Below, in pieces: positions 19,825 to 59,796 of a stretch of 64,000 nucleotides of DNA; within the stretch, counting starts at the first letter, position 1, and every line of letters begins with the position of its first letter. The DNA is from an uncultured bacterium (GTDB taxonomy: Bacteria; Actinomycetota; Geothermincolia; Geothermincolales; Geothermincolaceae): NCBI GenBank assembly GCA_963765625.1, contig CAVXXD010000005.1, positions 322,008 through 386,007 of the forward strand, in the 5' to 3' direction. The translations under genes and the position numbers were made by a program. The notes below the pieces were generated by a model. It worked only from the letters and a program-made list of their open reading frames with translations, had not been told where the DNA came from and searched no databases.

Positions 19825-20952
19825 TTACAGGGTCACGGTGACGGACAGGTCTCCGTCGTCGCGGTATTCCCAGGTACACCCGGTCGATTCCCGGCGGTAG
19901 GCCAGCTCCGTCAAGGCCTTGAGCGTGCCCACCATGAGCAGGTGCAGGCACGAGTTGTTCATCAGGATGGTCACTCTGTTCCGGTCGCCTTCCATACTTA
20001 CCAGGTTACCCATGCCGCTCAGGCCCAGCAGGCGCTGAAAGTCCCCGGCATCACGGTTCCATCTTTCCCAGCCCCAGGCTTCCTTGATCTGAAGGTACTG
20101 GGCCTCGACGACGGTTTCCTGGAGGTCGACACCAAGTTCGGCTACCATGTCCTCAATAGCCGTGTCCAGTGAGGTGGGTCCGAAAATGGCCATGCGCCGG
20201 CCGGTTTCGGGGTTGACGATGATGCCTTTCTCCAGGTCCCACCGGTAAATGGAAATCTCCAGCGGCACGCCGCATTCCGGGCAGGAGTCGAATTCCAAGC
20301 GGCCCGGCTTGAAATCGAAACGCCTGGTTCGCATTTTATCTTTCGATTCCGGATGCCGGCCGCCCTCGTAAGCCTCTATCTCGTAGAGGTCGGTCCCCAC
20401 CTTACGGTATTCGACCTGCAGATCGCGGTCTTCGAAGGCCTCACAGCCGGCCAGGATCTCGGCCGCCATGAAGATAATCGAGTACGGGTGGCTTACGGCG
20501 GTCGAGCGCCATGCATAATCATCGCAGGCCTCCAGGCTGACGTTGGGCAGGGGGTTGCCGTATCCGTAGATCTTGACCATGTCCTGCATGGCCTCGTAAT
20601 GGCCGGTGACGACGGCACACATCTTCTCCCGCTCCTCGGGAGTCAGGGCCAAGCCGGTCCCCTCCAGGTCCAGCCCCTCGAGCAGGGGTTGGCCTTTTTC
20701 CAGGGAATATATCTTTTCCAGAAAACTCCTGGTCTCCCGGCGCCGGCTCTCGATGGCGTAATGCTCCACTTCTATACCACTGAGTTTCTCTACGCCGCGA
20801 AAGAGGGGGTCGATTATCTCCGGCTCGTAGAAGACCCAGCGGTTCCTGCTCGAGCTCCTGGAGTAAATAACGCCGTTGTCCCCCCATCTAAGCTCTCCAC
20901 TGACCAGCAGGGGTACCCCGCACTTACCGCAAACCTCTATCCTGCCCATCAT
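19825..20952 (-). CDS. Paralogue 1 of a zinc-ribbon / V4R-like domain protein family
   Basis: CGKCGVPL and CPECGVPL zinc-ribbon motifs. The C-terminal GMGNLVSMEGDRNRVTILMNNSC segment resembles a V4R (4-vinyl reductase) domain. GGGAGG RBS. Paralogous to 50656..51736 and 58692..59796. Confidence 0.5.
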   Translation of the reverse strand: MMGRIEVCGKCGVPLLVSGELRWGDNGVIYSRSSSRNRWVFYEPEIIDPLFRGVEKLSGIEVEHYAIESRRRETRSFLEKIYSLEKGQPLLEGLDLEGTGLALTPEEREKMCAVVTGHYEAMQDMVKIYGYGNPLPNVSLEACDDYAWRSTAVSHPYSIIFMAAEILAGCEAFEDRDLQVEYRKVGTDLYEIEAYEGGRHPESKDKMRTRRFDFKPGRLEFDSCPECGVPLEISIYRWDLEKGIIVNPETGRRMAIFGPTSLDTAIEDMVAELGVDLQETVVEAQYLQIKEAWGWERWNRDAGDFQRLLGLSGMGNLVSMEGDRNRVTILMNNSCLHLLMVGTLKALTELAYRRESTGCTWEYRDDGDLSVTVTL

Positions 20953-26852: not shown

Positions 26853-27006
26853 TTTGCCGCCTCCTGTCCGGTCCGCGCGTGAATCATCTTTTTCTTGCAA
26901 TCATTATATCTTTAAGCAAAGCAACATAGCTTCTCGACATCATTATCGGCTCACCCTCGATTCCCATATTAAGGTTATCGGAAGTTGAGTAAGTATCCTT
27001 CAGGAT

Positions 27007-44027: not shown

Positions 44028-46616
44028 TTACGCTTTGCGGCGCCTTCGCCTTATACCTATACGGCCGAGCGAAAGCAGGCCCAGGGTACTGCCGAGCAAC
44101 AACATGGTGCCGGAGGCGCCGGTGCCGCAGGAGAAGGGCGCGTTTACGGTAAACCCGGCCGCGAGCCTGGCTTCCTTGCCGTAATTCCTCACCACCAGGT
44201 CCCAGGCTCCGAGGTTCAGGCCAGAAAGGTCGACGTCGCAGGTTATGGTATTGTCGGAAACCACTACCACCTTGCTCGCCTCTTTAACCATGCCGGACAG
44301 CTCGAGCGTGACCGTGGGTGTGACCCCGTAATCGAATCCCGTCCCGGTAAGGGTAAGGTGCGCAACCGTATACTGTGAGCCGTAGCCCGGAATGACCGCA
44401 GTGACGGTGAGCCGGACAGGAATGACGTTCACGGATGGGGCGACCGGATTGGTTCCCATCGAGGTCACCACGTAGACCTTCGAGCTTACGGCCCCTTCGG
44501 GGACGATGGCGTGGATCTCCGAGTTAGACCAGCTCGTATATCCGGCAGCCTCCAGTGACCCGAACATGACATATGCATCTCCCTGGACCTCTCCGAAATC
44601 ACAGCCGTTTATCACCAGCTCATCACCGGCATAGACGGATTCCGGGGTTACCGAATCGATCCGGGGAAGCCCGTACCCCCCGTTGGAGGTGGCGATGAAC
44701 CAGTCCGCCAGAGCCCAGGCATTCATGTCGTCGACAGCGAACACGCGTAGAGCATTTCCACTGCCATCAGGGACACACTGCTCTCGCCAGGAAACTCCCC
44801 CGTCAATTGTCTTGAGTACACAGGTGCTGTTCACGGCGCACCAGGCCGTGGTGCCGTCAACGGCAGATATGGACGTTATCGGGTTGCCATGGCCGGGATC
44901 ACACGACACCCAGGTGCTGCCTCCGTCGCTTGTTTTCGTTATAACAGACTGCTCCTGCGTGCCTCCCGCCACCCATATGTTGTTGGCATCATCACTTGAC
45001 ACGCTGTAATAATCTGTGCCGGTCAGTCCGGTTTCCACCGGCTGCCAGGTGCCACCGCCGTCCATGGTCTTCAAGACCGTCCCGGACGCTCCGACCAGCC
45101 AGGCATTGCTGCCGTCCAGAACGGACACGTCCATCAGATTGGCGGTGGTCCCGGAATCCTGCAGGCCCCAGGTCTCACCCCCGTCGGCCGATCTGATCAC
45201 GACGCCGTTGTCGCCGACAGCCCAAAGGACGTCTCCAGTCGACTTCACGCTCTGCAAGGTGGTTGAAACCCCCGAGGCGCGGGAGACCCAGCTCGCTCCG
45301 CCGTCGTCCGAACAGAAGATGGCGCCCTCGTCTCCCACTACCACCGCTTGTCCCGAACCGAGCACGGTGATTGAGCGTAAGGTGGCAGGGATGCCCGTCT
45401 TCCACACCCTGTAACTTCCGTCAAGGTTCGCTCTGGCGACGAAACCCTCCTCGCCGCAAGCCCAGGCTTCCGTCGATAATGACGATGAAAGACCAAGGAT
45501 CTTCCCGGTGACGGCAGTCTCCACCGGGCCCCAGCCCCAGCCTCCGGCGGTGGTCCTGTTCAGGGCGCTGCTGAACAATCCGCCCGTCCACGCCACCCAG
45601 GGATCCGGGGAGGAGATACAGAATTGGAGCCGCAGGTAACCGGTGGGCTGTTGCACCCAGTCGATGCCGTTGTTCGTCTTCAAGACGACCCCCTGCTCTA
45701 CTCTCAGAGAACCAGCGTCTCCTCCGGCCGCCCAGGCGGTGTTGCCGTCGCTCGAGCATATGTCGTAAATGGCATAGCCTTCGTATTGAGTGGCCCAGCT
45801 CAAGCCGCCATCGGTGGTCTTGTATATCTTGCCGCCCTGGGCATGCGTATCTCCATAAGCCACTGCGAACCAGGCCGTCTCGGAATCGACTCCGGCAACT
45901 GCGATATCCTGTCCGACGAGGGGGGTGGTCAGAAGGCTCCAGGTAGTTCCCCCGTCAACCGTCCTCAACGCGGTGCGTGGGGTCGGCCCGGTAGCGATGT
46001 AGCCCCCTCCCACCCAGGCCACCTCTGAGTTGACTGCCGAAACACATTCCAGGTTCTCTTTGGTGCCAGAGACCTGGGGTTCCCAGTTAGTGCCCCCGTC
46101 CGTCGTCTTCAAGATGGTGCCGCAGTCACCTACCGCCCAGGCGACCATGGAGTCGACGGCCGAAAGCTCATTGATGCTGTTAGTGGTACCCGAAGGCTGG
46201 TCCTGCCAGCTTATGCCTCCGTCGACGGTCTTGAGTATCCGGCTTGAGGTAGTAACCCAGGCTACGTCACGGTCGATGGCGCAGACCGAAGAAAGACTTG
46301 AGTTGGATCCGGAAAAGCTTATATCGTCCAGCCGGTATTCCATAAAAGACAAACCACCGCCCAGGATCCTGAAGATGCTCTTGCCCTTGATGGCCCAGGC
46401 TGTATCCCCGTCGACAGCCGATACGTCGTAGAACGAGAGATCGGTGGTGCTGAAGGGAGACGGCTTGGGCAGATCGTACCAGCCCAGCTCCTCGCCGGTG
46501 GCTGCCTGCAAACCCGTGCCGCCCGGAGCCAGGCCGAGCACGAGCATCGCGCACACCGCGGCCACCCACAAGACTGACAGGAACCTGGTAAAGAACGTAT
46601 TGTGAGCGCGTTTCAT
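44028..46616 (-). CDS. Secreted BNR/Asp-box beta-propeller protein (Ycf48/sortilin-like) with an IPT/TIG-like domain and a C-terminal TM helix plus Arg-rich tail
   Basis: Signal peptide after an AGGAGG RBS. Repeated (T/V)DGGxxW motifs. IPT/TIG-like segment IDSVTPESVYAGDELVINGCDFG. The C-terminus ends ...MLLLGSTLGLLSLGRIGIRRRRRKA. Confidence 0.65.
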   Translation of the reverse strand: MKRAHNTFFTRFLSVLWVAAVCAMLVLGLAPGGTGLQAATGEELGWYDLPKPSPFSTTDLSFYDVSAVDGDTAWAIKGKSIFRILGGGLSFMEYRLDDISFSGSNSSLSSVCAIDRDVAWVTTSSRILKTVDGGISWQDQPSGTTNSINELSAVDSMVAWAVGDCGTILKTTDGGTNWEPQVSGTKENLECVSAVNSEVAWVGGGYIATGPTPRTALRTVDGGTTWSLLTTPLVGQDIAVAGVDSETAWFAVAYGDTHAQGGKIYKTTDGGLSWATQYEGYAIYDICSSDGNTAWAAGGDAGSLRVEQGVVLKTNNGIDWVQQPTGYLRLQFCISSPDPWVAWTGGLFSSALNRTTAGGWGWGPVETAVTGKILGLSSSLSTEAWACGEEGFVARANLDGSYRVWKTGIPATLRSITVLGSGQAVVVGDEGAIFCSDDGGASWVSRASGVSTTLQSVKSTGDVLWAVGDNGVVIRSADGGETWGLQDSGTTANLMDVSVLDGSNAWLVGASGTVLKTMDGGGTWQPVETGLTGTDYYSVSSDDANNIWVAGGTQEQSVITKTSDGGSTWVSCDPGHGNPITSISAVDGTTAWCAVNSTCVLKTIDGGVSWREQCVPDGSGNALRVFAVDDMNAWALADWFIATSNGGYGLPRIDSVTPESVYAGDELVINGCDFGEVQGDAYVMFGSLEAAGYTSWSNSEIHAIVPEGAVSSKVYVVTSMGTNPVAPSVNVIPVRLTVTAVIPGYGSQYTVAHLTLTGTGFDYGVTPTVTLELSGMVKEASKVVVVSDNTITCDVDLSGLNLGAWDLVVRNYGKEARLAAGFTVNAPFSCGTGASGTMLLLGSTLGLLSLGRIGIRRRRRKA

Positions 46617-46707
46617 CAAATATACCTCCTGAATACCCCAGGCATATTGCATGCCCGGCCCCTTTGTATGTATCGAACAATATACATCTACCCAATCAAA
46701 TGCAAAT

Positions 46708-47794
46708 TTAAATAGCCTGCTGCTGGACGTCACCGTCAGGTGTCTTGCGCCTCATGTCCCGCAGCACCAGCAGGAAAGCGAAGCCGCCCACCAGCAGGCC
46801 GAGGTAGAAGTCGAAGAAGCGCCAGATCAGGGTGAGCAGGCCGGCCAGGTCTGAGGTGAGGAAGCTGGAGAAGATGGAGTAGAAGCCGAACTCCCCAACC
46901 CCGCTCCCGCCGGGGACCGGGACGAAGGGCATCAGCAGGTAGACCACCAGCGAGGCCACCGCCGCCTGCCAGAAGTAGCCGTGGTATCCCAGCGACACCA
47001 GGACGATGGGCATCACCAGCATGGAGGAGGCCCAGAACATCAGGGAGCAGAAGGCGGCCAGCAGGACCTGTCTTCCACCCCAGCCTGACGATCTGGCGCA
47101 GGAAGGCCGCGAAGCGCGAGGTCTCCTCGGCCAGCCGCGATGACCGCCCGGTTGACCCGCGGGCGCTCCGAGACGGCCGGGGGAAGGCGCGCGTGAACCA
47201 GTCCATGATGGTGCGGTCGGGGTTCTTCATGTAATAGAACATCAGCACCAGGAAGAGCATGAAGACGGAGAGGGCGATGTACAGTATGCCCTGCAAGGTC
47301 AGGGAGAGGTGGATCTTGCTGACTGCGATGAACACGGCCACGGGGGTAAAGAGGAAGAGGATGCCGGTGGAGATGAAGGCCCCGAAGGTTATCACCGCCA
47401 GCCCCTCGCCCGCGTCCATGCCGTAGAAGTGGAGCAGGTACGATTCCATGGCGATGCCCCCGATCTTCAAGGGGATGATGGTGTTGGTGAAGTGGCCGGA
47501 GTAGACCACCTTGACCAGGTCGGCGAAGGGTATGCGCACCTCGCCGGGGGCGGCCAGGATGCGGATGCGAAGGGCCAGCCAGAGAAAGCGGGAGAGGGAG
47601 ATGGCCAGGGCCAGTAGCAGCCAGGGCCAGCTCAGGTCGGCCAGTGTGTTCCATATCTCCTCGTCCATGGTCAGATAGGAGATCAGCACCAGCGCCGCCA
47701 CGCTTACCCCGACGGCCACGATGAGCATCAGTCTCAACTTGCGATGGCGTCGGGCCTGGCCTTCTTCGAAAGTGTGTCCATCCGTTTTCCTCAT
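46708..47794 (-). CDS. Lysylphosphatidylglycerol-synthase-TM-region / flippase-like domain membrane protein; frameshifted near 47040
   Basis: The PGGSGVGEFGF motif characteristic of the flippase-like domain is in the C-terminal piece. The multi-TM N-terminal piece is in another frame. Confidence 0.55.
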
Positions 47795-47852: not shown

Positions 47853-49031
47853 TTAGAGAAGCTCGATGATCATGGCCATTCCCTGGCCGCCGCCGATGCA
47901 CATGGTGGCCAGGCCGTACTTGCCGCCGACGTCCTTGAGGCCGGACATCAGGGTGACCACGATGCGGCAACCGGTGGCTCCCACCGGATGGCCCAGGGCC
48001 ACGCCGGAGCCGTAGATGTTGATCTTCTCGGGCGGGAAGTCGATCTGCGAGATGCAGTAGTAGGCCTGGGCGGCGAAGGCCTCGTTCAGTTCGATGAGGT
48101 CGATGTCCTTCAGGCTCATGCCCGACTTCTTGATGACCTTGTCGATGGCGTAGATGGGGCCGACGCCCATGATCTCGGGCTCGCAGCCGATGGCGGCGTA
48201 CTCGATCACGCGGGCCATGGGCTTCTTGCCCAGCTCGGCGGCCTTGTCCGCGGACATCATGACCACGCAGGCGGCGGCGTCGTTGAGCCCCGAGGCGTTG
48301 CCGGCGGTGACCGTCCCGTCCTTCTTGAAACCGGTCTTCAGTGAAGCCAGTTTCTCCATGCTGCTGTCGCGCACGGGGAACTCGTCGGTGTCGAACACCT
48401 TGACTCCCTTGCGGGTTTTGACCTCGACCGGGATGATCTCGTCGGCGAACTTGCCGGCATCGATGGCGGCAATGGCTTTTTTCTGGCCCGCCAGGGCGTA
48501 ATTGTCCTGCTGCTCGCGGGTGACCCCGAAGCGCTCGGCGATGTTCTCGGCCGTCTGGCCCATGATCAGCTTGGTGTAGGGGTCGTGCAGGACGTCCCAG
48601 AGGGAGTCGATGAGCACGGAGTCCTGCAGGCGCTTGCCCCAGCGCGTGTCGTTGTTGTAATAAGGCGCGGAGCTCATGCACTCCACCCCGCCGGCCACGA
48701 TGACGTCGGCGTCTCCCAGGCGCAGGCTCTGGGCGCCGGCCACCAGGGCCTGCATGCCGGAACCGCAGCCGCGGATGACGCCGTGGGCGGGAACGGTGTT
48801 GGGGATGCCGGCCAGGAGCGCGCCGTACCTGGCGACCAGGTTGTTCTCGTCGGTGCGCGGGATGACGTGGCCGAAGATGACCTCATCAACGATGTCACCC
48901 TCGATGCCGGCCCTTTTCATGGCCTCTACGATGACCAGGCGGGCCAGTTCGCCGGGCATGACGTCCTTCAAACTCCCTCCGAAACTGCCGATGGGTGTGC
49001 GGCAGCCGCTTACAATAACTACGTCCTTCAT
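47853..49031 (-). CDS. Acetyl-CoA C-acetyltransferase (thiolase)
   Basis: N-terminal VIVSGCRTPIGSFGGSL and the thiolase active-site Cys/His/Cys signature regions (GLKDVGGKYGLATMCIGGGQG). Confidence 0.9.
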   Translation of the reverse strand: MKDVVIVSGCRTPIGSFGGSLKDVMPGELARLVIVEAMKRAGIEGDIVDEVIFGHVIPRTDENNLVARYGALLAGIPNTVPAHGVIRGCGSGMQALVAGAQSLRLGDADVIVAGGVECMSSAPYYNNDTRWGKRLQDSVLIDSLWDVLHDPYTKLIMGQTAENIAERFGVTREQQDNYALAGQKKAIAAIDAGKFADEIIPVEVKTRKGVKVFDTDEFPVRDSSMEKLASLKTGFKKDGTVTAGNASGLNDAAACVVMMSADKAAELGKKPMARVIEYAAIGCEPEIMGVGPIYAIDKVIKKSGMSLKDIDLIELNEAFAAQAYYCISQIDFPPEKINIYGSGVALGHPVGATGCRIVVTLMSGLKDVGGKYGLATMCIGGGQGMAMIIELL

Positions 49032-49162
49032 CGGGTACCTCCTCTTGTCGCGATGTATGCTGACTTTTTCTGTCTTCCAGGGTGCTGCTGTATGCACAGC
49101 CATATTATTTTACTATAAGATGAATCCCACACCAGCATTTTTTAAGAAATGGAGTGATGCAC

Positions 49163-49435: not shown

Positions 49436-50232
49436 TAACGCGTAAATATCGTCACCAGCTCAAGCGGCCGCACGTCAGCCCGGGCGGCCAGGTCGCCCTC
49501 CCGCAAGGCCAGCCCCAGCCACCCTGATGAGTCGGTGTAGAGCAGGAGTTCGCCCCGGCCCACATCCCCGTAGGTCGATGCCACCATCGATTCCCAGATG
49601 GTTTCGCCTATCTCCACCACGACCTTGTCTCCCGCCGCGGCCCGGCCTTCCAGCTTGGCGGCCTCCACGCCCAGGCGCAGATTGCCGAAACGGTCCACGT
49701 CGATGACCTGGCAGCAGAGCGCGCCAGGGACTTCCCACGCCTCCTTCCAGGGTGATGGGGCCAGACAGGAGACATCTACCCGAGGGCCCGCCTGCCCGGC
49801 TGGCCACCCCCCGGCCAGGCGGGCCGCCGCCGGCGCGAAGACGTCCCGGCCGTGGAAGGTGGGGTGGACCGGCTCAAGAAAAAGTTCCTCCGCCTCCACC
49901 GACCAGGCGGCGCTGATCCCGCCCAGCCGGCCGGCCGCCGGTAAGAGCAAACCGTTGTCCGGCCCCAGCAGCAGGTCTCCTCTGCCACATTCCAGTAAAA
50001 GGACCCGGCGCTCCGTGCCCACGCCAGGGTCCACCACCGCCATGAACACACCTGGCTCGAACCAGGGTGCGGCGGCGGCAAGAGTCACAGCGGCCTTGCG
50101 GATGTCGAAGGGTGGTATGTCGTGGGTTATGTCGAAGGTCACAATCCCGGGTGCCGCGGCACGAATGACCGCCTTGACCACCGCCACGAACTCGTCGGCG
50201 GTGCCGAAGTCCGTCAGGAGGTAGACGGGGAG
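49435..50232 (-). CDS. SAM hydrolase / SAM-dependent halogenase family protein (DUF62, S-adenosyl-L-methionine hydroxide adenosyltransferase-like)
   Basis: YLLTDFG N-terminal motif and VVDPGVG motif. Possible GTG start. The ORF as called overlaps the YjbQ gene. Confidence 0.55.
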   Translation of the reverse strand, partial: LPVYLLTDFGTADEFVAVVKAVIRAAAPGIVTFDITHDIPPFDIRKAAVTLAAAAPWFEPGVFMAVVDPGVGTERRVLLLECGRGDLLLGPDNGLLLPAAGRLGGISAAWSVEAEELFLEPVHPTFHGRDVFAPAAARLAGGWPAGQAGPRVDVSCLAPSPWKEAWEVPGALCCQVIDVDRFGNLRLGVEAAKLEGRAAAGDKVVVEIGETIWESMVASTYGDVGRGELLLYTDSSGWLGLALREGDLAARADVRPLELVTIFTR

Positions 50233-50624
50233 CACGGCAGGACTTCCACTATCACGGTACGCGTGCGGGGACCGTCGAACTCGCACAAGAACACGCCCTG
50301 CCAGGTACCCAGGACCATGCGCCCTTCCCGCACCGGGATGGTCTTAGACGACCCGGTTATGAGTGCCTTGATGTGGGAATCGGCATTGCCTTCGCTGTGG
50401 CGGTAGCCGGCGTTGCGGGGCACCAGCCTCTCCAGGCCCGCCAGTATGTCCTTCACCACGTCGGTGTCGGCGTTCTCGTTGATGGTTATCCCTGCCGTGG
50501 TGTGGGGGACATAGACCAAGCATGCACCATCGCTGATGCCGCTCTGTTCCACCGCTTTCTTGACCCGGCCGGTGATGTCGACCATCTCGGCCCGCCCGCT
50601 CGAGACAACCTCAAAAGCAAGCAA
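50214..50624 (-). CDS. YjbQ-family secondary thiamine-phosphate synthase enzyme (UPF0047)
   Basis: VYVPHTTAGITINENAD...GTWQGVFLCEFDGPRTR is characteristic of YjbQ. Confidence 0.7.
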   Translation of the reverse strand: MLAFEVVSSGRAEMVDITGRVKKAVEQSGISDGACLVYVPHTTAGITINENADTDVVKDILAGLERLVPRNAGYRHSEGNADSHIKALITGSSKTIPVREGRMVLGTWQGVFLCEFDGPRTRTVIVEVLPCSPSTS

Positions 50625-50655: not shown

Positions 50656-51736
50656 TCAACCGGCCGGTTCCACCCCGATGACCTGATAACCCTCTTCGCT
50701 GGTCACCCAGGTGACTCTGCTCTTGACCTTCTCGACCGCCTCGTAATAGCCGGCGATCCTCCCGGCCATCAGGGCGTCGTTGAAGGGGTTCTCCACCTTT
50801 ACCTTGAGCTGCTTCCCGGCTTCCTCCACCTCGACGGGATTGCCCATGCCCCGCATTCTCACCTCGTCGAAGAGGCGCATGATGCCCCCTTCTTCCTCCA
50901 GGTTTCGCTTGGACATGCGCTCCCGCATCAGTTCAGCCTGGCGCTGCGCCACCATGTTGGAGACCTTTTCGCCCAGTTCCCTCTCCATCTCGGCGAAGAT
51001 GGCGTTGATGCCCTGCACCGAGAGGAAGGCTTCCCTGTAAGCGGTGCGGCGGTTGGTGATGATGCCGTTGACCGTGTCCCAATTGAAGTGTTCCGACACC
51101 GACAGGGGCACCTTGCAGGCCGGGCAGAGCGGCAGGTCGACCACCCCCGGTATGAAGTCCGACCGGGTGATGGGTATGTCGTAGGGCTGCTCGTCGGTCT
51201 GCTTGAACTCGATGAGCGTGGTGCCGTTCTCCTTCTTCCAGGTAACGGCCATATTCACGCCCTGCATAACCTGGAAAGCGCCTATGCAGTCGCCGATGAT
51301 CAAGGGAAGGGAGTGGGCGTTGCGGATCCGTACCAGGGCTCGGCGCTTCCCCTCGAACTCGATGAGGGTTGTGCTGCCGTAGCCCATGCACCTCGCGTAG
51401 GCGGAGACACGGGAAAAGACCGCGTTGACGAAGACCTGGAGCTGGAACGGTTTGGGGATGCCCCGAGTGATACTGGCCAGCCTCGGGGGGAAGGTGGACT
51501 CCAGCAGTTCCTGCCCGATGGGCCTCTCCGCCGCGATGAGGATGTTGTCGATGGGTATGCCCAGCAACTCGCTCAAGTAAGAAAGCAGGTTGAGCAGCTC
51601 ATCTATTTCGATGAAGAATAGGCGCAGGTCCGTGATTCTTCCGGAGACGATGGTGCCGCCACCCGTCCAGACGACGTTCCGGGCGAAGATCAGTGGGGTT
51701 TCACATTGCTTGCATCTCTTGACGGCTTTGATAAGA
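50656..51736 (-). CDS. Paralogue 2 of the zinc-ribbon / V4R-like protein family, immediately downstream of a receiver-domain gene
   Basis: CKQCETPL and CPACKVPL zinc-ribbon motifs. C-terminal GMGNPVEVEEAGKQLKVKVENPFNDAL V4R-like motif. The start is uncertain because no canonical ATG follows the AAGGAG. Confidence 0.45.
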
Positions 51737-52180
51737 TCAGCTCCTTTTCGGTTCCGCGTCAAGGCCGTCAAGCCGGGCCAGCTCACTACGCCGGCGTGCC
51801 TGGCGTTGTTCGGGCGTGGTCTCCAGCAAGCCCTTGACCTGGTCGGAGAGGACCTTGGGGTTGAAAGGCTTGACGACATAGTCGTCGGCCCCCATCTCCC
51901 ATCCCCGCATGAGGTCCTGCCGCTGTGCCCTGGCGGTCAGCAGGACGACGGGCAGCCCGGCCAGCTCGCGGTTCTCCCTGACCCGTCTCAGCACCTCCCA
52001 GCCGTCCGTGCCGGGCATCATCAGGTCCAGGACCATCAAATCGGGCCCTTTCTTTTCCAGAGATTTCAACGCCGAATCGCCGTCCCAGGCTTCCTCCACC
52101 AGGAAGCCGCTCAGTTCGAGGTTTATCTTGACCAGCCGGGTCAGCATGGGGTCGTCGTCGACCACCAGTATTTTTTTCAT
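51737..52180 (-). CDS. Single-domain response regulator (CheY-like receiver)
   Basis: VVDDDP, phospho-acceptor Asp in LMVLDLMMPG, and the KPF motif. Confidence 0.85.
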   Translation of the reverse strand: MKKILVVDDDPMLTRLVKINLELSGFLVEEAWDGDSALKSLEKKGPDLMVLDLMMPGTDGWEVLRRVRENRELAGLPVVLLTARAQRQDLMRGWEMGADDYVVKPFNPKVLSDQVKGLLETTPEQRQARRRSELARLDGLDAEPKRS

Positions 52181-52314
52181 CCTCCACCCTTCCTCAAGGT
52201 AATTCTCATTCTATCGCATCATGACTTCTTCATCCAAACCGCTACGGGCGCGCGAGGTTAATGTATAATCTTTATGTTTGTTCAGTATTGTTACTAGGGA
52301 TAAGGGAGGTAGAT

Positions 52315-53454
52315 ATGAGCATCGAGTTCCAACCCATCCATGACGACTTGAGGAAATCGTACCGGGAATTCGTCGAGAACGAACTCCTGCCCCATGCCGA
52401 CGAATGGGAGGAAGCCGAGGATTTCCCGTACGAGTATTTCAAGAAGATGGGCGACCTGGGATACCTGGGCATGCAGTTCCCGGAGGAATACGGCGGAGAC
52501 GACGACATCCTGGCCGAAGTCGTGGTCCAGGAGGAGCTGCCGCGCTGCGGCTCCGGCGGCGTAGCGGCCTCGGTCGGCGCGCACGTCAGCATCGCCATGC
52601 CGCAGATCAGCAAGTTCGGCACCCCGGAGCAGAAAGAGAAGTATCTCGTCCCGGCCATCAAGGGCGAATCCATCGGCGCCCTGGGCATCACCGAGCCGGG
52701 GGCCGGCTCGGACGTCGCCGCCATCTCCACCTACGCGGTGCGCGACGGTTCCGACTGGGTGATCAACGGCTCCAAGACCTTCATCACCAACGGCTGCAAG
52801 TGCGACTGGATAGTAGTGGCCGCCAAGACCGACCGCGACAAGGGATTCGGCGGCATCTCCCAGTTCATCGTGGAACGTGGCACCCCGGGCTTCGAGACCT
52901 CCAAGAGGCTGAAGAAGCTGGGCTGGAAGGCATCCGACACCGGCGAACTCGCCTTTATGGACTGCCGCGTACCCGCCGACGCCCTGCTGGGCACGGAGAA
53001 CAAGGGGTTCTTCCAGATCATGGCCAACTTCACCTGGGAGCGGCTGACCCTGGCCCTGGGTTCCATCTCCGGGGCCCAGATGGTTATGGAAGAGACTATC
53101 GCGTACGCCAGGGAGCGCCAGGCCTTCGGCCACCCCATCAGCCAGTTCCAGGTGATAGCGCATTACTTCGCGGACATGGCTACCAAAATAGAGGCGGCGC
53201 GCCAGCTCACCTATTACGCCCTCGAACTCCACATGCAGGGAAAGAACCCCATCAAGGAGGTCTCCATGGCCAAGCTGTTCGGCTGTGACGTCGCCTGTGA
53301 AGTGGTCGACCAGTGCCTGCAGATCTACGGCGGCTACGGCTTCATGGACGAGTACCCCGTCTCCCGCACTTTCCGGGACATGCGCCTGGGGCCCATCGGC
53401 GGCGGCACCCGCGAAGTGATGCGCGAGATCATCGGCAAGACCATGGGGCTGTAG
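52315..53454 (+). CDS. Acyl-CoA dehydrogenase (butyryl-CoA dehydrogenase-like)
   Basis: Acyl-CoA-dehydrogenase N-terminal, middle and C-terminal domain signatures, and the catalytic-base region YGGYGFMDEYPVSRTFRDMR. AGGGAGG RBS. Confidence 0.9.
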   Translation: MSIEFQPIHDDLRKSYREFVENELLPHADEWEEAEDFPYEYFKKMGDLGYLGMQFPEEYGGDDDILAEVVVQEELPRCGSGGVAASVGAHVSIAMPQISKFGTPEQKEKYLVPAIKGESIGALGITEPGAGSDVAAISTYAVRDGSDWVINGSKTFITNGCKCDWIVVAAKTDRDKGFGGISQFIVERGTPGFETSKRLKKLGWKASDTGELAFMDCRVPADALLGTENKGFFQIMANFTWERLTLALGSISGAQMVMEETIAYARERQAFGHPISQFQVIAHYFADMATKIEAARQLTYYALELHMQGKNPIKEVSMAKLFGCDVACEVVDQCLQIYGGYGFMDEYPVSRTFRDMRLGPIGGGTREVMREIIGKTMGL

Positions 53455-53481
53455 CCCAGCGAGCTCCCGCAACGGACACAA

Positions 53482-53512
53482 GCCCTGGCGGTTCTGCCGT
53501 CAGGGCTTTTAT
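53482..53512 (+). terminator. Rho-independent terminator after the acyl-CoA dehydrogenase gene
   Basis: AGCCCTG-gcggttctgccgtc-AGGGCT followed by TTTTATTTT. Confidence 0.55.
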
Positions 53513-54498
53513 TTTACCGGGGCGCCAAGCGCCTTCCGCCTCTCCCCCAGGCCCGGTTGGGGGTTCCATCCCTTCACCTGGAACCAGGCTTCGGGGTCGA
53601 CGAAGTAGGACTTGCGCAGTTTGACCGGTCCTGTCCAGACGCTGACGTCGAAGGCGGACGTGCCTGCTTCCGCCATCCTCTCCTCCACCTTGTCGAACAC
53701 CGAGGCCATGGCCTCCGCCCCACCGGGGACGGACGCCGCTTCACGGTCGGCTGCCAGAACCCGCTTGCGCCAGTCCACCGTCCGCAGCAGCCCGACCAGC
53801 GGCAGTGACGCCAGCAGGTTGACGAGGAGGGTGGTCACCATCATCAACGAGGGCATGCCCAGGACCAGGAAGGCCCGGCTCCATCCGGGAGAGTCCGCCT
53901 CCAGCAGCAGCCCCAGCCAGAAGGCGGCAAGCAGCACGATGTTGCCGAAGAAGAAAGCCCGTCCGGCGGCCCCCTTCTTCCCGACCAGCCTGGAAAAGAG
54001 GGTGGGGGCGAGGGAGAGCCGGGCATAGGTCGACCAGATGGCTGCATCTCCCCAACGCAACCTGGCCATTTCACAGGCCAGCAGGGCCTGCGTCTCGCCA
54101 CGGTCCAGACCCTCCAGGACACCGTCGGTCAACACCAGGAAGCCATTCCCTTCCCGCCCCAGGGCCAGGGCATTGACGTTCCGGCTGGAGGTGCGCATGA
54201 AGGCCGGCGGACCCTGCATGCCGGCGCCGCGATTTGCCTTGAACGCTTCGGTCACCTTGGGGTGCAGCGACAGGTCCAGGGGGAAGGCTTTGATCTGCTG
54301 GAGGATCACGTCGGTGCCGCGCAGGAGGCAGTAGGCGGTGAAAGCGATATAGGCCACTTCCAGCAGGCCGAAGGCGACCGGCCACGGGAGGCCGGGGCTG
54401 ACCAGGCAAGCCAGGCCCGTCGAAACCGCCAGCGATACCAACAGGTCGGTCAAGAGCAGCAGGGCGTTGAACGAGGCCGTCCTGGTTTTCATGCTCAC
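53509..54498 (-). CDS. M48/HtpX-family peptidase homologue with a degenerate active site (probable pseudo-protease)
   Basis: HtpX-like TM topology. The position of the HEXXH zinc motif reads LACEMARL. Confidence 0.5.
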   Translation of the reverse strand: MSMKTRTASFNALLLLTDLLVSLAVSTGLACLVSPGLPWPVAFGLLEVAYIAFTAYCLLRGTDVILQQIKAFPLDLSLHPKVTEAFKANRGAGMQGPPAFMRTSSRNVNALALGREGNGFLVLTDGVLEGLDRGETQALLACEMARLRWGDAAIWSTYARLSLAPTLFSRLVGKKGAAGRAFFFGNIVLLAAFWLGLLLEADSPGWSRAFLVLGMPSLMMVTTLLVNLLASLPLVGLLRTVDWRKRVLAADREAASVPGGAEAMASVFDKVEERMAEAGTSAFDVSVWTGPVKLRKSYFVDPEAWFQVKGWNPQPGLGERRKALGAPVK

Positions 54499-54604
54499 TT
54501 CCTTTCACGGCGCGGCTACGCGGTTTCCGGGACGTGTCCGCAGTGCTCGGACGCTTGCCGGGCACCTCAATAAATCGTACCATGGTAAATACAAGCAAGG
54601 GGGT

Positions 54605-55559
54605 ATGAGCATGAAACACGGCAGCTGTCCGAACTGCGGAGCACCGGCTGGATCCGGCTTCTTCTGCGACGAATGCGGCGGCCCGCTCTTCGAGGACGCG
54701 AGTTCCTCGAACCGGGCGGATAACACCACCGGCGATCCCGTACCCGGCGGTGCTTCCCGCCGGGTTCGCCGGGCATCCCCAGGAGGCTACCCGGTCGGGC
54801 CCCGCTTCCTTCCCGGGGGGCATGCCCCCAGGCCCGGCAGGGACCCGGTTACCCGCCTCCCGCAGGTCCTGGCTACCCGCCGCGGAGGGGGTTACCCGCC
54901 CCGGCCCTCTTATTACATGCCGCAGCGCCAGGTGCCGCAGGGCTTGAAGGTGAGCCGCAATGCTTTCCTGGCCGTCGCCATACCCTTCGCCGTCCTGATG
55001 ATCGCCGCCCTGCTGGTGCTCTACGTGTGGAAGCCCTTCGAAGCGCCCAAGATGATCGTGCCGCTGCCGGAAGGCTGGACCGACTCCGCCGGGTTCACGA
55101 GGGACTCGGTCGAGGACAGCGTCGAGGACGTAGCCGAGGGCACGGGGCTGGATGCCATGTACGAGAACACGGAAGAGACTTACGACTTCATCATCGCCAT
55201 GCACATGAACATGAAAGGCGCCGATGGTGTCCCACCGGGGGGTGCCGACCAGGCCGAGATGGAGAAGTTACCTGGAGGAAAACGGCGACGAACTGGAGTC
55301 GGGTTTCCTGGCCGGGTTCGCGATGGGCATGGGGGATTCCGACATCGAGTCTATCGAGGCGGAAGAAATGGGCAACGGCGACGGCGTCGTCCACATCACG
55401 GCGGCCAACTCCACCCCCATGTCCGCGGACTACATGGCCATGCACATTCTTCTTCTCACCAAGAAGAACACCACCTATATGGTCATGGTATTCTGTTCGA
55501 CCGACGCCGAGGCCGAAGAGACCCTGGAATTCCTCAAGCAGAACATAAGCTTCGAGTGA
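54605..55559 (+). CDS. Zinc-ribbon membrane protein, hypothetical; frameshifted near 55260
   Basis: N-terminal CPNCG...CDECG zinc ribbon, a Pro/Gly-rich linker, one TM helix, and an extracellular domain that continues in ORF 55224..55559. Confidence 0.45.
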
Positions 55560-55605
55560 CGTCCAACCTTCTTCGCCCGGCATTATTAAAACGAAAGGAG
55601 CAGGC

Positions 55606-56368
55606 ATGGAATACGAGACCCTCATATACGAAGTCGAGGGAGAGGTCGGCGTTCTCACTTACAACCGGCCGCGCGTGGTCAACGCCATCAACAAGCAGAT
55701 GATGGACGAGCTGACCGATTTCTGGCAGGCACGCCAGCGGGACTTCGACACGCGCGTGCTCATCGTGCGCGGCGGTGGCGAGAAGGGCTTCTGCTCGGGC
55801 CTGGACATGAAGGCCGCCGCGACGGAGTTCCACGAAGGCATCCCCACGGCGGAGAGCGTCTACAACGGCCAGAACCAGTTCTCCGGCGTTATCCGGCTCA
55901 TGCGCACCTGCCCCCAGCCCATCATCGCCGCGGTGCACGGGCCGGCCATGGGAGCGGGGCTGTCCTTCGCGCTTGCGTCAGACGTCCGCCTGGCCAGCCC
56001 CGACGCCATGTTCTGCGCCCAGTACATCAACATCGGGACGGGAGGGGCGGACATGGGCTCGAGTTTCTTTCTTCCCAAGATAGTCGGTTGGGGGCGCGCC
56101 GCCGAGATGTGCCTGACCGGCGTCCGGGTCGATGGGCCGAGGAAGCCTGGCGTATCGGCCTGGTCAACCACCTCCACCCCCTGGAGGAACTGCTACCGGC
56201 GGCCAGGGCCATGGCCGGGTGATGGTGGGAAAGACCAGGCTGGGCCTGCGCCTGACCAAGGACGCCTTCAACGCGGCCTTGAACGGCTCCAGCCTGGAGG
56301 ACGCCAACCGCATGGAAGACCGGAACCAGGCTTTCTTTATCTCCAGTGGTTTGATGCAGTCCTGAGGG
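55606..56368 (+). CDS. Enoyl-CoA hydratase/isomerase (crotonase family); two frameshifts near the 3' end
   Basis: GGEKGFCSGLDMK oxyanion-hole region and AAVHGPAMGAGL. The C-terminus is recovered from ORF 56132..56365. Confidence 0.8.
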
Positions 56369-58578
56369 TCAGGGCAGGAGAAAGCTGAAGATGGAGCCGC
56401 CCTCCGGGTTGGGCTCGTACCAGATGAGCCCCCCGTGGGCCTCGACGATCTTGCGGGCGATGTACAGGCCCAGCCCGATGCCGGGCACGGAGTGGTAGAT
56501 GGCGTCCCCCACCTGGTACAAGCGGTCGAAGATGCGCTTCCGCTCCTCCACCGGCACCCCGGGCCCCCGGTCGGTCACGGAGACTATGACCGTCTCGTTC
56601 TCCTCCCGAGCCTCCACGGTTATGGCGCTTCCCGCCGGCGCATACTTGACGGCGTTCTCCAGTAGTATGACCAGTAGCTGGGTGAGCTTCTCGGGGTCGG
56701 CGCCGCAGACCAGCGGAGGGTCCGGCAGTTCCAGTTCGAAGTAGTGGGGGCTGCCCTTGATGAGCATCTCCTCGACCACTTCTTCGATCAGCCTCACCAG
56801 TTCGACATCTTTCCTCTGGACCAGGAAGCTCCCCCGCTCGATCCGCGAGGTGTCGAGCAGGGCCGACACCAGTTTTTCCAGCCGTATCGTTCCCCTGTCG
56901 ATGGCGTTGAGGGCCTTGCGGCGGGTCTCCTCGTCCAGGTCTTCCCCGAAGCTGTTGAGCACCTCCGAATAACCCTTCATCAGGGTGATGGGATGGCGCA
57001 GCTCATGTGAGGTGATGTTGATGAAGTCCCTCAGGGCTTCCTCGTAAGCCCAGCGCTCCTCCTCGATGGAGATGGAGCGGGCAAGCATGCCCATTATCTC
57101 GGTCTCCTCCCGGGTGAAGACCTCTTCCTCCCGGTCCAGGAGGCAGAGGAACCCGGTAAGCCGGTCTTTCAGCATCACCGCGCAGGCCATCAGGCGCTTG
57201 ATGCCGAACCTGGCCAGGTCGGGCATGAGCGCCTCGTATTCGCTGCCCTCGATCCCCTCGACGATGTAGGGCCGGCCGGCGCCCCGGGCGCCCACTTCCT
57301 TCATCAGGCGCTCCCGCACCAGGCCGGAGATGTAGAGCCCGTCCTCCGACCAGGCGGCGAAAGCGTTGGCGAGCTTGTCGTCGGAAGGGCGGTAGTAGAC
57401 CAGCAGCACCCCGTCCAGGATCTCCCGCCCCGAAGCCACCAGGACCTCGATGTTGTCCCTGAAGTCGGCGCCCAGGCTGAGGAAGCAGCCGTTGAGCCTG
57501 GCCAGCCTCTCCTCGGTGCGCTTGCGTTCGGTGATGTCGCGCGTCCCGATGATGGCCCCGGTTATCTCTTTTCCCTCATCGTCGAAGATGGGGTTGGCTA
57601 TCGACTCCATCCAGAGGTAACGCCCGTCGGCGTGGCGGTAGCGGTAATCGACCTTGAGCGATACCCTCTCCTCGATCCCTTTGAGGTACCTGTCGACGAT
57701 ATATTCGAGGTCGTCCGGGTGGACGAACTCGAAGACGGTCCGCCCCAGCATCTCCCGGGGCTCGTAGCCGAGGTGCTCGCGGTGGGACAGCCCTATGAAT
57801 TCGTATTTCCCTTCCCTGCTCACCTGGCTGACCATGTCCATCATGTTGTCGGTGACGAAACGCAGCTTCTTCTCGCTGGCGCGCAGGGCTTCCTCGTATT
57901 CGCGGCGCTCGGTGATGTCGGTGGAGTTGATGACCACCCCGGCCACGGCCGGGTCGGCAAGGAGGTTCTTCCCTTTTACCTCGACCCAGTGCCAGCTGCC
58001 ATCCTTGTGCATCACCCGGTAGGTCGCGGTGACGGTGTGACCTTCCTGCGTCAAGCCGTCCGGAAGATCTTCGCCACCATTTTCGCGGTCGTCCGGGTGG
58101 ACCAGTTCGAAGGCGTCGGTGCCATTCACCTCGTCCAGGCTGAAACCGTAGGTGCGCTCGAAGGAAGGGCTGGCGTAGCGGATGCTCCCGTTGCCGGTCC
58201 AGGACGACGATGACGTCGTGGGCGTTCTCAATGAGGGAGCGGAAATAGGCCTCGCTTTTCCGCAGAGCCTCGCGTGCCTCCACCTGTTGCGGATATTCGG
58301 AGATGACGCCGAGCATGCCGACGACTCCGCCGCCGCTCCCGGTTACGGCGGAAGCCTTGAAGCAGGGCCGGCATGACGTCACCCCGGATGTTCTTCAGCT
58401 CGACCTCTCCCACCCATTTCCGGCCGGCCAGGACCGCTTCAATGATCTCGTCCTGGATCTCTGGATGGACGTAGAGGGTGGACGTGCCGCCGCTGGCGTT
58501 GAACTCCTCCACGGAACAGCCCATGTACCTCTCGGCTGTTTTGTTCTGGTAGACCAGGCGGCCGGAGAGATCCGCCAC
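56369..58578 (-). CDS. PAS-domain sensor histidine kinase; frameshifted near 58230
   Basis: Multiple PAS folds, H-box HELRHPITLMKGYSEV, and ATPase G-box GIGLGLYIARKIVEAHGG. The N-terminal PAS piece is in ORF 58228..58578. Confidence 0.8.
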
Positions 58579-58691
58579 CGAGATGCTGTCGGGCGCGAGG
58601 TCGAGGACCCCCGCGAGGTTATCGATATAGTGTCTTCAGTTCGTCGGCCTGGACCGTCCGTTCCAATGGACCGGGGGTTCCGCTTGCGCCT

Positions 58692-59796
58692 CTAGACCGC
58701 CATCACCTGGGTGGACCTGCGTGGGGTGATGCTGAACTTGATGGTGGCCTCGTCCAGGTATCCCCAGTCGACGTTGGAGCGCCGTCCCTCGCCCAGTTCG
58801 TACATGCCGGAGAGGTGCCCGGCCAGGATGTGTTCGTTGTAAGGGTTCTCCACGACAATGGACATGGCGCCGTCGTCGTTGGAGAAGCTCACCGGGTTGC
58901 CCTGGCCGCGCAGGGCCACCGTCTCCAGCACGGCCGCGTAGAGCCGGTCCTTGTTGACGTACTGCTCCTGGTCCTTTTCCTCGAGGAACTCGGCCTTGAG
59001 CCACTTGAGAGAGAAGCTCTTCATGGCGTCCACTACCGTGGGGTAGACCAGTTCCCCGAACTCCCGGCTGAGCTCGCGGAAGACCGCCTGGGGGACGTAG
59101 GCATCGATGAAGACCATCCGCACGCCACGGCGCATCTCCATGATGATACCCTGTATCCTCCTGCCAGTCCAGCCCGGAGAGGCCGAGGGGCACGCCACAG
59201 TCCGGGCATCGCTCGAAGTTGCGGTTACCCGGCTTGGACTTGGCGCGCTCGACAAACTGGTTCTCGTTGATGAGTGAGCGGGCGGGATCGGGGCGCACCA
59301 GGATGAGCTCCTCGCCCCGTTTGTTGACCCAGGTGTACTTGAAGGGCCTCTTCTCCAGGCCCTCGAAGGCGCCGACGATGTTGGCGGCCAGCAAGTCCCG
59401 GTTGAAGGCGTTGCGCAGGATGGCTTCACCGTACTTCTTGGGCTTGTAGACCACCGTCTCGGCATAACCCATGCCGGTCCAGATGGACAGGTTGCAGAAG
59501 ATGTTGATGGCGATGTTCTTGTTGGGGCCGATGCGTCCGGCCGCGAAGATGCCCTTGATGTTGGAGTTGATCACCGCTTTGGAAGCCGCTTTCTGCGCCT
59601 CGAAGACGATGTGGCCGACGGAGACGCCGAGGTCGTCCTCGATGCGTTTGAAGATCTCGCTCAGGAAGTCCGCCTCTACCAGGACCGCGCGGAAGTTCTT
59701 GTCCAGGCGCTCGGTCATGGTGCCGTTGTCGTTGAAGTGTAAGAACGTGGAAAGTTGTTTGCAGAACCCGCAGACCTTACACTTCCAAACCTTCAT
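58692..59796 (-). CDS. Paralogue 3 of the zinc-ribbon / V4R-like protein family, immediately upstream of the PAS histidine kinase; frameshifted near 59170
   Basis: CKVCGFC and CPDCGVPL zinc-ribbon motifs. C-terminal GQGNPVSFSNDDGAMSIVVENPYNE. GGAGGGGG RBS. Confidence 0.5.

Follow-up and report, generated by a model that had tools for sequence, protein, structure and literature searches.

A predicted tandem V4R-like protein family with an invariant four-cysteine pattern in Candidatus Geothermincolia

Three genes, here called P1, P2 and P3, represent an unannotated protein family in the window, by which we mean the whole stretch of 64,000 nucleotides that was analysed. Going by the named loci, Candidatus Geothermincolia (Actinomycetota) is the sole group in whose genomes the family has been seen. 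Sequence comparison strongly supports that a module of about 180 aa was duplicated in tandem to give each protein of about 360 aa. An earlier note on this DNA had proposed a general signalling module in which such proteins are coupled to histidine kinases and response regulators. This proposal does not hold, because a signalling gene is the usual partner in just one branch of the family.

The three paralogues and their tandem architecture

The genes and the cysteine knuckles of P2 are the following.

19825..20952, minus strand: P1, 375 aa, intact; belongs to the largest subfamily; 365 homologues
50656..51762, minus strand: P2, 368 aa, intact, TTG start; 21 homologues
51703..51714, minus strand: N-terminal CxxC knuckle of P2 (Cys17, Cys20); both cysteines kept in all members that include the N-terminus
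51115..51126, minus strand: second knuckle of P2, CPxC (Cys213, Cys216), where the second module begins; invariant in 293/293 members
58692..59796, minus strand: P3, 367 aa after removal of one extra base at ~59150

That the three are clear paralogues was well seen in the earlier note. They find one another by phmmer and align along their whole length with a pairwise identity of 22-24%, and the order of shared motifs is as described: CxxCG.PL, G(Y/M)G, CPxCGVPL..W and G(M/Q)GN.V...NP. Two of the gene limits had to be revised. The P2 locus was correctly placed, but a start at 51736 is out of frame; the sole canonical start is the TTG at 51762, so that the receiver gene, at its end, shares 26 nt with P2. 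P3 is a paralogue as claimed but not a single open reading frame, as it carries a +1 frameshift at ~59150 (GGG-T-ATC). Its orthologues in two related loci (L040 and L055) are intact. One homologue, P0022, is ~100% identical to P1; exact look-ups of P0012 and P0303 gave no record.

The family comprises ~540 clusters at 50% identity and is uniform in length (~350-380 aa). Related genomic loci were retrieved with narrower family alignments, and all 35 come from metagenome-assembled actinobacterial genomes, including Ca. Solincola, Geothermincola and Anoxymicrobiaceae. Candidatus Geothermincolia are uncultured anaerobic actinobacteria. There are several copies per genome and tandem arrays of up to four. 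Such arrays suggested a defence system, which was rejected since there are no PADLOC matches and the neighbours are metabolic.

The earlier note took the architecture to be undescribed, and this was borne out: P1-P3 match no family in scans of Pfam, NCBIfam and PADLOC, nor any PDB sequence, and a set of 66 members matches none in Pfam. The lone profile match among PDB sequences, rubrerythrin (E ~0.4), was driven by the CPxCG motif and was dismissed as noise. The duplication is seen when the profile of the N-terminal half is aligned to that of the C-terminal half (hhalign 99.5%, E 2.7e-22, 157 columns).

Structure prediction gives strong support to the view that the module folds like V4R/Bet3 and like the aromatic-sensor domain of the XylR/DmpR type. 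The AF2 model of P2 (pLDDT 92.9, pTM 0.90) has its best Foldseek matches in PoxR, MopR and DmpR at 12-17% sequence identity, and its likeness in three dimensions to V4R, XylR-type sensor and Bet3 structures places it in the V4R/Bet3-like fold superfamily. The V4R-like segment suggested from the letters alone is thus supported as to fold, but it is not confined to the C-terminus, as the two halves are homologous copies. The Pfam model V4R (PF02830), which had been named as a further check, matched neither P1-P3 nor any of 66 diverse members at E<=1. Two glycine doublets (G-x3-G) are conserved in V4R/Bet3-like proteins, where they lie in helices alpha2 and alpha5, which pack together (PMC2253512). 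One (G/A)-x3-(G/A) pair per module is found in the helix following the NP motif (at 334/338 G in 97%, then A or G; at 157/161 A or G, then G in 85%), and no second doublet per module was seen in the family alignment.

Two zinc ribbons with four cysteines each, as first suggested, are not present. There is only one CxxC per half, at the start of each module, which makes four cysteines per protein with the two knuckles ~193 residues apart in the sequence, and all zinc-ribbon Pfam matches of P1-P3 and the 66 members are below threshold. The pattern CCCC is found in 274 of 293 members; the remaining 19 merely lack the N-terminus, so there are zero substitutions, and no conserved His or additional Cys was found in the 293 members besides those at the module starts. 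Since the four cysteines are never substituted and each half has one knuckle, they probably form one Cys4 site and not two Cys4 ribbons. This single predicted site, binding Zn (or Fe), would join the modules into a pseudo-dimer. In the model of P2 the pTM across the modules is 0.90 and both knuckles score >90 in pLDDT, which fits such a site indirectly.

Gene neighbourhoods

A kinase or regulator lies within three genes of a family member in 2 of the 35 genomic loci (a response regulator in L013, a kinase in L019), and the same numbers are found further away. Across these loci two-component neighbours are not enriched for the family as a whole, and the comparison of neighbourhoods across genomes, proposed earlier as a check, therefore speaks against two-component linkage as a trait of the family. 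P1 has no two-component neighbour within the window; it is flanked by TrmO upstream and small membrane ORFs downstream. The P3-kinase adjacency is confined to one syntenic block, outside which P3-like genes have no adjoining kinase. The kinase near P3-like genes in L045 and L046 was rejected as linkage: it is on the opposite strand, two genes off and of a different type (HisKA_7TM).

The situation is different for P2, which is part of a conserved block.

47853..49103, minus strand: thiolase, on the same strand as P2
49435..50286, minus strand: SAM hydroxide adenosyltransferase (SAM_HAT); follows YjbQ downstream as a conserved neighbour
50214..50624, minus strand: YjbQ/UPF0047 gene, directly downstream of P2 in every P2 locus reaching there
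51737..52180, minus strand: stand-alone receiver (REC only, 147 aa; Pfam Response_reg 1.3e-28, 110/111 positions)
52261..53454, plus strand: acyl-CoA dehydrogenase, 81% identical to the L040 orthologue, divergent from the receiver-P2 operon
53509..54498, minus strand: Peptidase_M48-like membrane protein
55606..56365, plus strand: enoyl-CoA hydratase (crotonase), in three frames, with one-base gaps in G-runs at ~56136 and ~56216

The orphan receiver directly upstream of P2 and co-directional with it was correctly recognized in the earlier note, as were the acyl-CoA dehydrogenase and crotonase between the two signalling pairs and the thiolase nearby. The receiver has the full set of phospho-acceptor residues (D8/D9, D52, T82 and K104, as read in its sequence) and no output domain. 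The receiver-P2 pair recurs in relatives down to 53% identity and is present in 6/8 loci (the window, L053, L040, L050, L041 and L052); L053 carries a second, paralogous dehydrogenase/receiver/P2-like module. Because the receiver is missing from two otherwise syntenic loci (L049, L055), P2 does not depend on it. The acyl-CoA dehydrogenase, which adjoins P2 divergently in 7/7 loci, is the more constant neighbour; its true start is probably at ~52315, since the alignment with the orthologue begins at 52327. The intergenic regions between dehydrogenase and P2 contain two conserved -10 boxes and, by eye, no conserved operator-like repeat besides these.

Possible functions

We hold, with moderate confidence, that the proteins are ligand-binding adaptors acting in trans, with P2 possibly the partner of a receiver and linked to beta-oxidation. 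V4R domains are considered to be binders of hydrophobic ligands that signal in cis or in trans (PMC2253512). The family is read in this way because its members have no output or catalytic domain: they would bind small, probably hydrophobic or acyl, ligands and act on partner proteins, and each genome would maintain several diversified copies, often arranged in tandem. The P2 orthogroup would have been fixed beside the beta-oxidation cluster (divergent acyl-CoA dehydrogenase, crotonase, thiolase), co-transcribed in most genomes with the stand-alone receiver and probably serving as its partner or effector. The PAS-GAF kinase of the same block is a likely phosphodonor. A co-sensor or output partner of this kind had been foreseen in the earlier note; the pairing of P2 with a receiver (6/8 loci) agrees with it, the general coupling to kinases and regulators (2/35 loci) does not. 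A more specific and unlikely version is that receiver and P2 form a split response regulator whose output part is the Cys4-stapled double V4R-like receptor, and that phosphorylation by the PAS-GAF kinase and binding of an acyl ligand would be combined on P2 to control the neighbouring beta-oxidation genes. A fused AF2 model of receiver and P2 gave a pTM of 0.69 and thus no confident docking, with a receiver part that had no alignment depth.

Alternatively the proteins could be accessories of metabolism, either carriers or chaperones of acyl or other hydrophobic compounds, in parallel to the role proposed for the V4R protein BchJ, or Fe(Cys)4 redox partners of the acyl-CoA dehydrogenases; the receiver and kinase adjacencies would then be incidental. 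A dehydrogenase is the most frequent neighbour and adjoins members of all three subfamilies, but its enrichment (7/147 genes within three positions, 2/123 farther) is weak and not significant in a small, non-independent sample, and most loci have no dehydrogenase nearby. Among the loci with a dehydrogenase, L006 and L009 have two of them together with a PaaK-like ligase and a nitroreductase-ferredoxin, L042 also has two, and the P2 block has one in 7/7 loci. P2 persists in L049 and L055, where the receiver is missing. The knuckle motifs CxxCG and CPxCG moreover match what we take to be the rubredoxin pattern. On the other hand the characterised relatives of the fold act as sensors or scaffolds rather than as enzymes or electron carriers, and the receiver-P2 operon is kept in several genera and also in the paralogous module. 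We consider an accessory role rather unlikely.

For the preferred reading the P3-kinase adjacency would be inherited as part of the same block and may or may not be functional. The multi-PAS histidine kinase that the earlier note placed after P3 does lie directly downstream of it:

56369..58671, minus strand: cytoplasmic histidine kinase, PAS-PAS-GAF-HisKA-HATPase_c (HisKA 2.2e-14, HATPase_c 1.9e-25)

As assembled, the kinase has frameshifts at ~58350 and ~58195 and an in-frame stop at 58636-58638 near the N-terminus, its N-terminal third is spread over three frames, and one PAS unit of the 883-888 aa orthologues is missing from it. With five indels and one in-frame stop between 56136 and 59150 it could be argued that P3, kinase and crotonase are decaying in this genome and that the P3-kinase pair is a relic; the missing PAS unit would fit with this. 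We find such decay improbable. The translated pieces are still 57-92% identical to intact orthologues, both crotonase indels are gaps of one base in G-runs, a P-type ATPase (41027-43320) and a Zn-ribbon membrane ORF in other parts of the window are broken by frameshifts as well, and a near-identical ENA contig bears a long-read-style name and fragmented gene calls. These observations combined indicate indel errors of the assembly.

A new type of ligand-responsive transcription factor, with a Cys knuckle and beta-hairpin that bind DNA and with the divergent dehydrogenase as target of P2, would account for the back-to-back promoters of a regulator/target layout kept in 7/7 P2 loci, for the many paralogues per genome in varied contexts and for the frequency of V4R domains in transcription regulators (e.g., XylR/DmpR, MsvR), but is very improbable in view of the lack of an HTH or known DNA-binding domain detected by Pfam in P1-P3 and 66 members, of DNA-binding structures among the credible fold matches and, by eye, of a conserved operator-like repeat, and of the four-paralogue tandem arrays, which are unusual for regulators.

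Related systems and significance

The XylR/DmpR-type sensor domains function as dimers, with small hydrophobic molecules as ligands, as in the PoxR and MopR structures. One module of the family corresponds to one complete sensory domain (XylR_N + V4R) of XylR, DmpR, PoxR or MopR, and the tandem duplication would mimic the sensor dimer. The zinc site of these sensors consists of Cys, Glu, Cys and His inside the V4R part (MopR and PoxR structures); the family differs by having its cysteines at the module N-termini, one CxxC each. It further differs by its low sequence identity (that of the Foldseek matches above), by the lack of a Pfam match and by having no AAA+ or HTH output.

The stand-alone V4R proteins (COG1719; MJ1460, PDB 2oso/2osd) and BchJ likewise have no output domain, and they have in common with the family the pattern G.G, then a strand, then N(P/S). 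Stand-alone V4R proteins are presumed to bind hydrophobic ligands (PMC2253512). In contrast to them the family is a double module with the invariant Cys4 pattern, is missed by the Pfam V4R model and is restricted to one actinobacterial class. Bet3/TRAPPC3, YslB (DUF2507), BcsD and H-NOX have no sequence similarity to the family, come from different biological contexts and have neither CxxC knuckles nor the tandem duplication.

The closest precedent for the pairing of receiver and P2, likened by description, is MetOD1, a V4R/HNOB-like, Cys-containing domain fused to REC in archaeal (methanogen) regulators (PMC5847659). Receiver and P2 would be a split analogue of these: REC-MetOD1 is fused and archaeal, whereas P2 is a separate gene product, bacterial, and its receiver is dispensable in some genomes. 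MetOD1 is absent from the Pfam tables of P1-P3 and, for the 66 members, from the 25 most frequent of 50 families at E<=1.

Taken as modelled, the tandem V4R/XylR-sensor-like pseudo-dimer with its invariant Cys4 pattern appears to be a new architecture, with a confident model and a sharp taxonomic range. Candidatus Geothermincolia gains a signature gene family, which is a tractable case for the role of stand-alone V4R-like proteins, a question since the naming of the domain. If receiver and P2 are functionally linked, the link would be a bacterial equivalent of the archaeal REC-MetOD1 regulators. If the reading as a split regulator should be true, the wider family would amount to a set of small-molecule receptors that act in trans and are particular to this lineage, and to a signalling currency undescribed in bacteria.

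Reading frames of the three genes

An ORF listing and a six-frame translation bear out the three related minus-strand genes reported in the earlier note, here called P1, P2 and P3; their paralogy also holds, with pairwise identities of 22-24% in a full-length alignment. The Pfam domains of the two signalling genes, a receiver and a kinase (PAS, GAF, HisKA and HATPase_c), agree with the earlier description, and the receiver residues D8/D9, D52, T82 and K104 are all present. L040 and L055 in the list, like the L numbers below, are homologous loci from other genomes or contigs.

19825-20952, minus strand: P1, 375 aa, intact
50656-51762, minus strand: P2, with the end at 50656 and the start at TTG 51762, the sole canonical start
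51737-52180: receiver, a REC-only protein (Pfam 1.3e-28)
58692-59796, minus strand: P3, two frames, one extra base at ~59150
56369-58671: kinase, two frameshifts and an in-frame stop as assembled
L040 3395-6061 and L055 11129-13780: intact kinase orthologues, 883-888 aa
41027-43320, minus strand: heavy-metal P-type ATPase (HMA, E1-E2_ATPase and Hydrolase), two overlapping ORFs in different frames
54600-55700, plus strand: Zn-ribbon membrane ORF, which appears split (ORF translations only)

The P2 start had been placed at 51736, which is out of frame; the TTG at 51762 makes P2 overlap the 3' end of the receiver gene by 26 nt. The extra base in P3 lies in the context ACA GGG T ATC ATC, and when it is deleted the protein reads '...DWQEDTG IIMEMRRG...' and is colinear with P1 and P2. 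The crotonase gene has two one-base gaps, both in G-runs. The gene at 54600-55700 has an N-terminal double CxxC (CPNCG...CDECG), a transmembrane segment and no Pfam match; it seems to run on in another frame (55224-55559), and this stretch of ~1.1 kb is missing at the syntenic position of L040. The frameshift that splits the P-type ATPase lies away from the focal region and points to indel errors throughout the assembly. A near-identical contig in ENA is named in long-read style, and its gene calls are fragmented. Because of the G-run gaps, the split ATPase and Zn-ribbon ORFs and the long-read-style contig we think that the indels of P3, the kinase and the crotonase are mostly assembly errors. 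A less likely alternative, which concerns this genome alone, is that the P3 and kinase genes are decaying; apart from its frameshifts the window kinase is ~120 aa shorter than its orthologues and has one PAS unit fewer.

A duplicated module and its fold

The three proteins had been described as carrying two Cys4 zinc ribbons and a V4R-like C-terminal part. These two ribbons are absent. CxxC occurs exactly twice in each protein, once per half: at the N-terminus (CxxCG.PL) and again ~193 residues further on (CPxCGVPL). Profiles of the N-terminal and C-terminal halves match with 99.5% probability (E 2.7e-22, 157 columns), so that each protein is a ~180-aa module duplicated in tandem. The module is built, in this order, of one CxxC knuckle, W..G.I and R..F.E, three helices, G.G, a strand, N-P and a (G/A)xxxG helix.

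Among 293 full-length family members the pattern of four cysteines is found in 274, the remaining 19 lacking only the N-terminus; there is no cysteine substitution and no conserved histidine or further cysteine in these 293. The simplest reading is that the four cysteines form one putative metal site, to which each module contributes one knuckle. Since the CxxCG/CPxCG pair is the pattern of rubredoxins as well as of zinc ribbons, the metal could be zinc or iron.

An AlphaFold2 model of P2, built with an alignment of 66 sequences (pLDDT 92.9, pTM 0.90), has two similar halves. Foldseek against the PDB gave as top matches the phenol-sensor domains of PoxR, MopR and DmpR (E about 1e-3, target TM 0.5-0.59), which supports the guess of a V4R-like fold, and the model places this fold in both halves of P2. 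Membership of V4R at the sequence level did not survive: PF02830 matches 0 of 66 members, even at E<=1. Searches of NCBIfam and PADLOC gave nothing and a profile search of PDB sequences gave noise only, which bears out the suggestion that the architecture is undescribed. The family is a variant within the V4R/Bet3-like fold superfamily with a previously undescribed architecture.

Gene neighbourhoods

The earlier note saw two-component genes each paired with a member of the family, in operons with two of the three paralogues. In 35 genomic loci, from a scan with one genome per species, phmmer detects a single response regulator and a single kinase no more than three genes from a member; beyond that distance it detects one response regulator and no kinase. 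Acyl-CoA dehydrogenase (7), EamA (5), biotin carboxylase (4) and AMP-binding (3) lead the Pfam counts among 135 neighbours, where Response_reg is outside the top 25 families. A HisKA_3 kinase with a NarL-type regulator (L013) and a kinase with an FMN reductase (L019) lie upstream of members. These counts speak against a general two-component module; linkage across the family is absent in the 35 loci. The earlier observation is largely real once its anatomy is corrected, and its interpretation is supported in part: for the V4R-like fold and the undescribed architecture, not for a general signalling module.

P2 and P3 belong to one conserved block, found in the window, in L040 (P2 68% identical) and in L055 (Ca. 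Geothermincola secundus). Its order is NIF3, Zn_ribbon_9, RNase H, (oxidase), P3, kinase, crotonase, M48-like and acyl-CoA dehydrogenase, then, divergently, (receiver), P2, YjbQ, SAM_HAT and thiolase. The adjacency of P3 and kinase is limited to this block in three genomes, because P3-like genes elsewhere lie beside different genes: L042 has two dehydrogenases, L045-L048 have UDG and C_GCAxxG (with tandem family copies in L047 and L048), and L054 has a deacetylase and an MFS transporter.

In the P2 orthogroup the dehydrogenase is a fixed neighbour, divergently adjacent to P2 in 7/7 informative loci, and the receiver is facultative. It occurs in the window and in L053, L040, L050, L041 (Ca. G. 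primus, 53%) and L052; in L049 and L055 there is neither space for the gene nor a tblastn trace. L053, a near-identical strain, has a second divergent module of dehydrogenase, receiver and P2-like gene (117-2794, read with frameshifts; identities 57%, 70-78% and 44%, respectively) where the window has crotonase, kinase and P3.

In L006 (3210-4763 and 7262-9073), L009 (6129-7628 and 9300-11111) and L008 (408-1913 and 3985-5736) genes for two conserved proteins, one of about 500 aa and the other of about 600 aa and neither with a Pfam match, alternate with tandem P1-type genes. Upstream of them lie a PaaK-like ligase, a nitroreductase-ferredoxin and two dehydrogenase-like genes, and the whole may form an uncharacterised catabolic cluster. 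The window has, immediately upstream of P1 and TrmO, a 1687-aa ORF (21837-26900, minus strand) with many internal repeats, in the order 'GW..P'-type propeller-like units, repeated Ig-like units and four 'WYLAEGCTGEGFETW' repeats; related large proteins occur near members in L020, L021, L023, L028 and L037. A 901-aa protein with BNR/PSII_BNR (Ycf48-like) and TIG domains (44028-46733, minus strand) adjoins an LPG_synthase_TM gene.

Proposed function and distribution

By word-indexed search P2 has 21 homologues, P1 has 365 and the P3 type has 36, and an exhaustive profile search gave 540 clusters at 50% identity; the full-length matches listed are about 340-390 aa, with no recognisable fused domain. 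All 35 genomic loci are actinobacterial MAGs, including Ca. Solincola and Ca. Geothermincola, both genera of the class Ca. Geothermincolia, and Ca. Anoxymicrobiaceae. Genomes have several copies (7 in MAG SURF_21 and 6 in Ca. Solincola sediminis with a single search pattern), often in tandem arrays, the longest of four (L006, L018).

The family combines a sensor-like fold, an invariant Cys4 pattern and a lineage-specific expansion, and its proteins have no output or catalytic domain. V4R domains are generally thought to bind ligands and act on partners in trans (PMC2253512). From this we infer that the family proteins are trans-acting ligand binders; the ligands would probably be hydrophobic or acyl, and the tandem modules might mimic the dimeric XylR-type sensor domain. 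The partner of P2 would be the stand-alone receiver; such a pairing comes closest to the REC-MetOD1 regulators of methanogens, in which the output domain is V4R- and HNOB-like with conserved cysteines (PMC5847659). An AlphaFold2 run of fused receiver and P2 gave a pTM of 0.69 and no confident docking, the receiver part having no alignment depth.

Alternatively, the proteins could be metabolic carriers or redox partners of acyl-CoA dehydrogenases, the fixed neighbour of P2. In a further proposal P2 would be a DNA-binding regulator of a new kind, transcribed divergently from its target. The region between the dehydrogenase and the receiver or P2 gene (window 52181-52330 and its equivalents in L040, L041, L049, L052 and L055) has conserved back-to-back -10-like boxes, TATAAT(C)TT on the dehydrogenase side and (G/T)ATA(G/T)AAT on the P2 side, and inspection of these six regions by eye revealed no further conserved element. 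Of these readings we prefer trans-acting ligand binding. The proteins make up an unannotated signature family of Ca. Geothermincolia, and one of its branches may be linked to a receiver and beta-oxidation.
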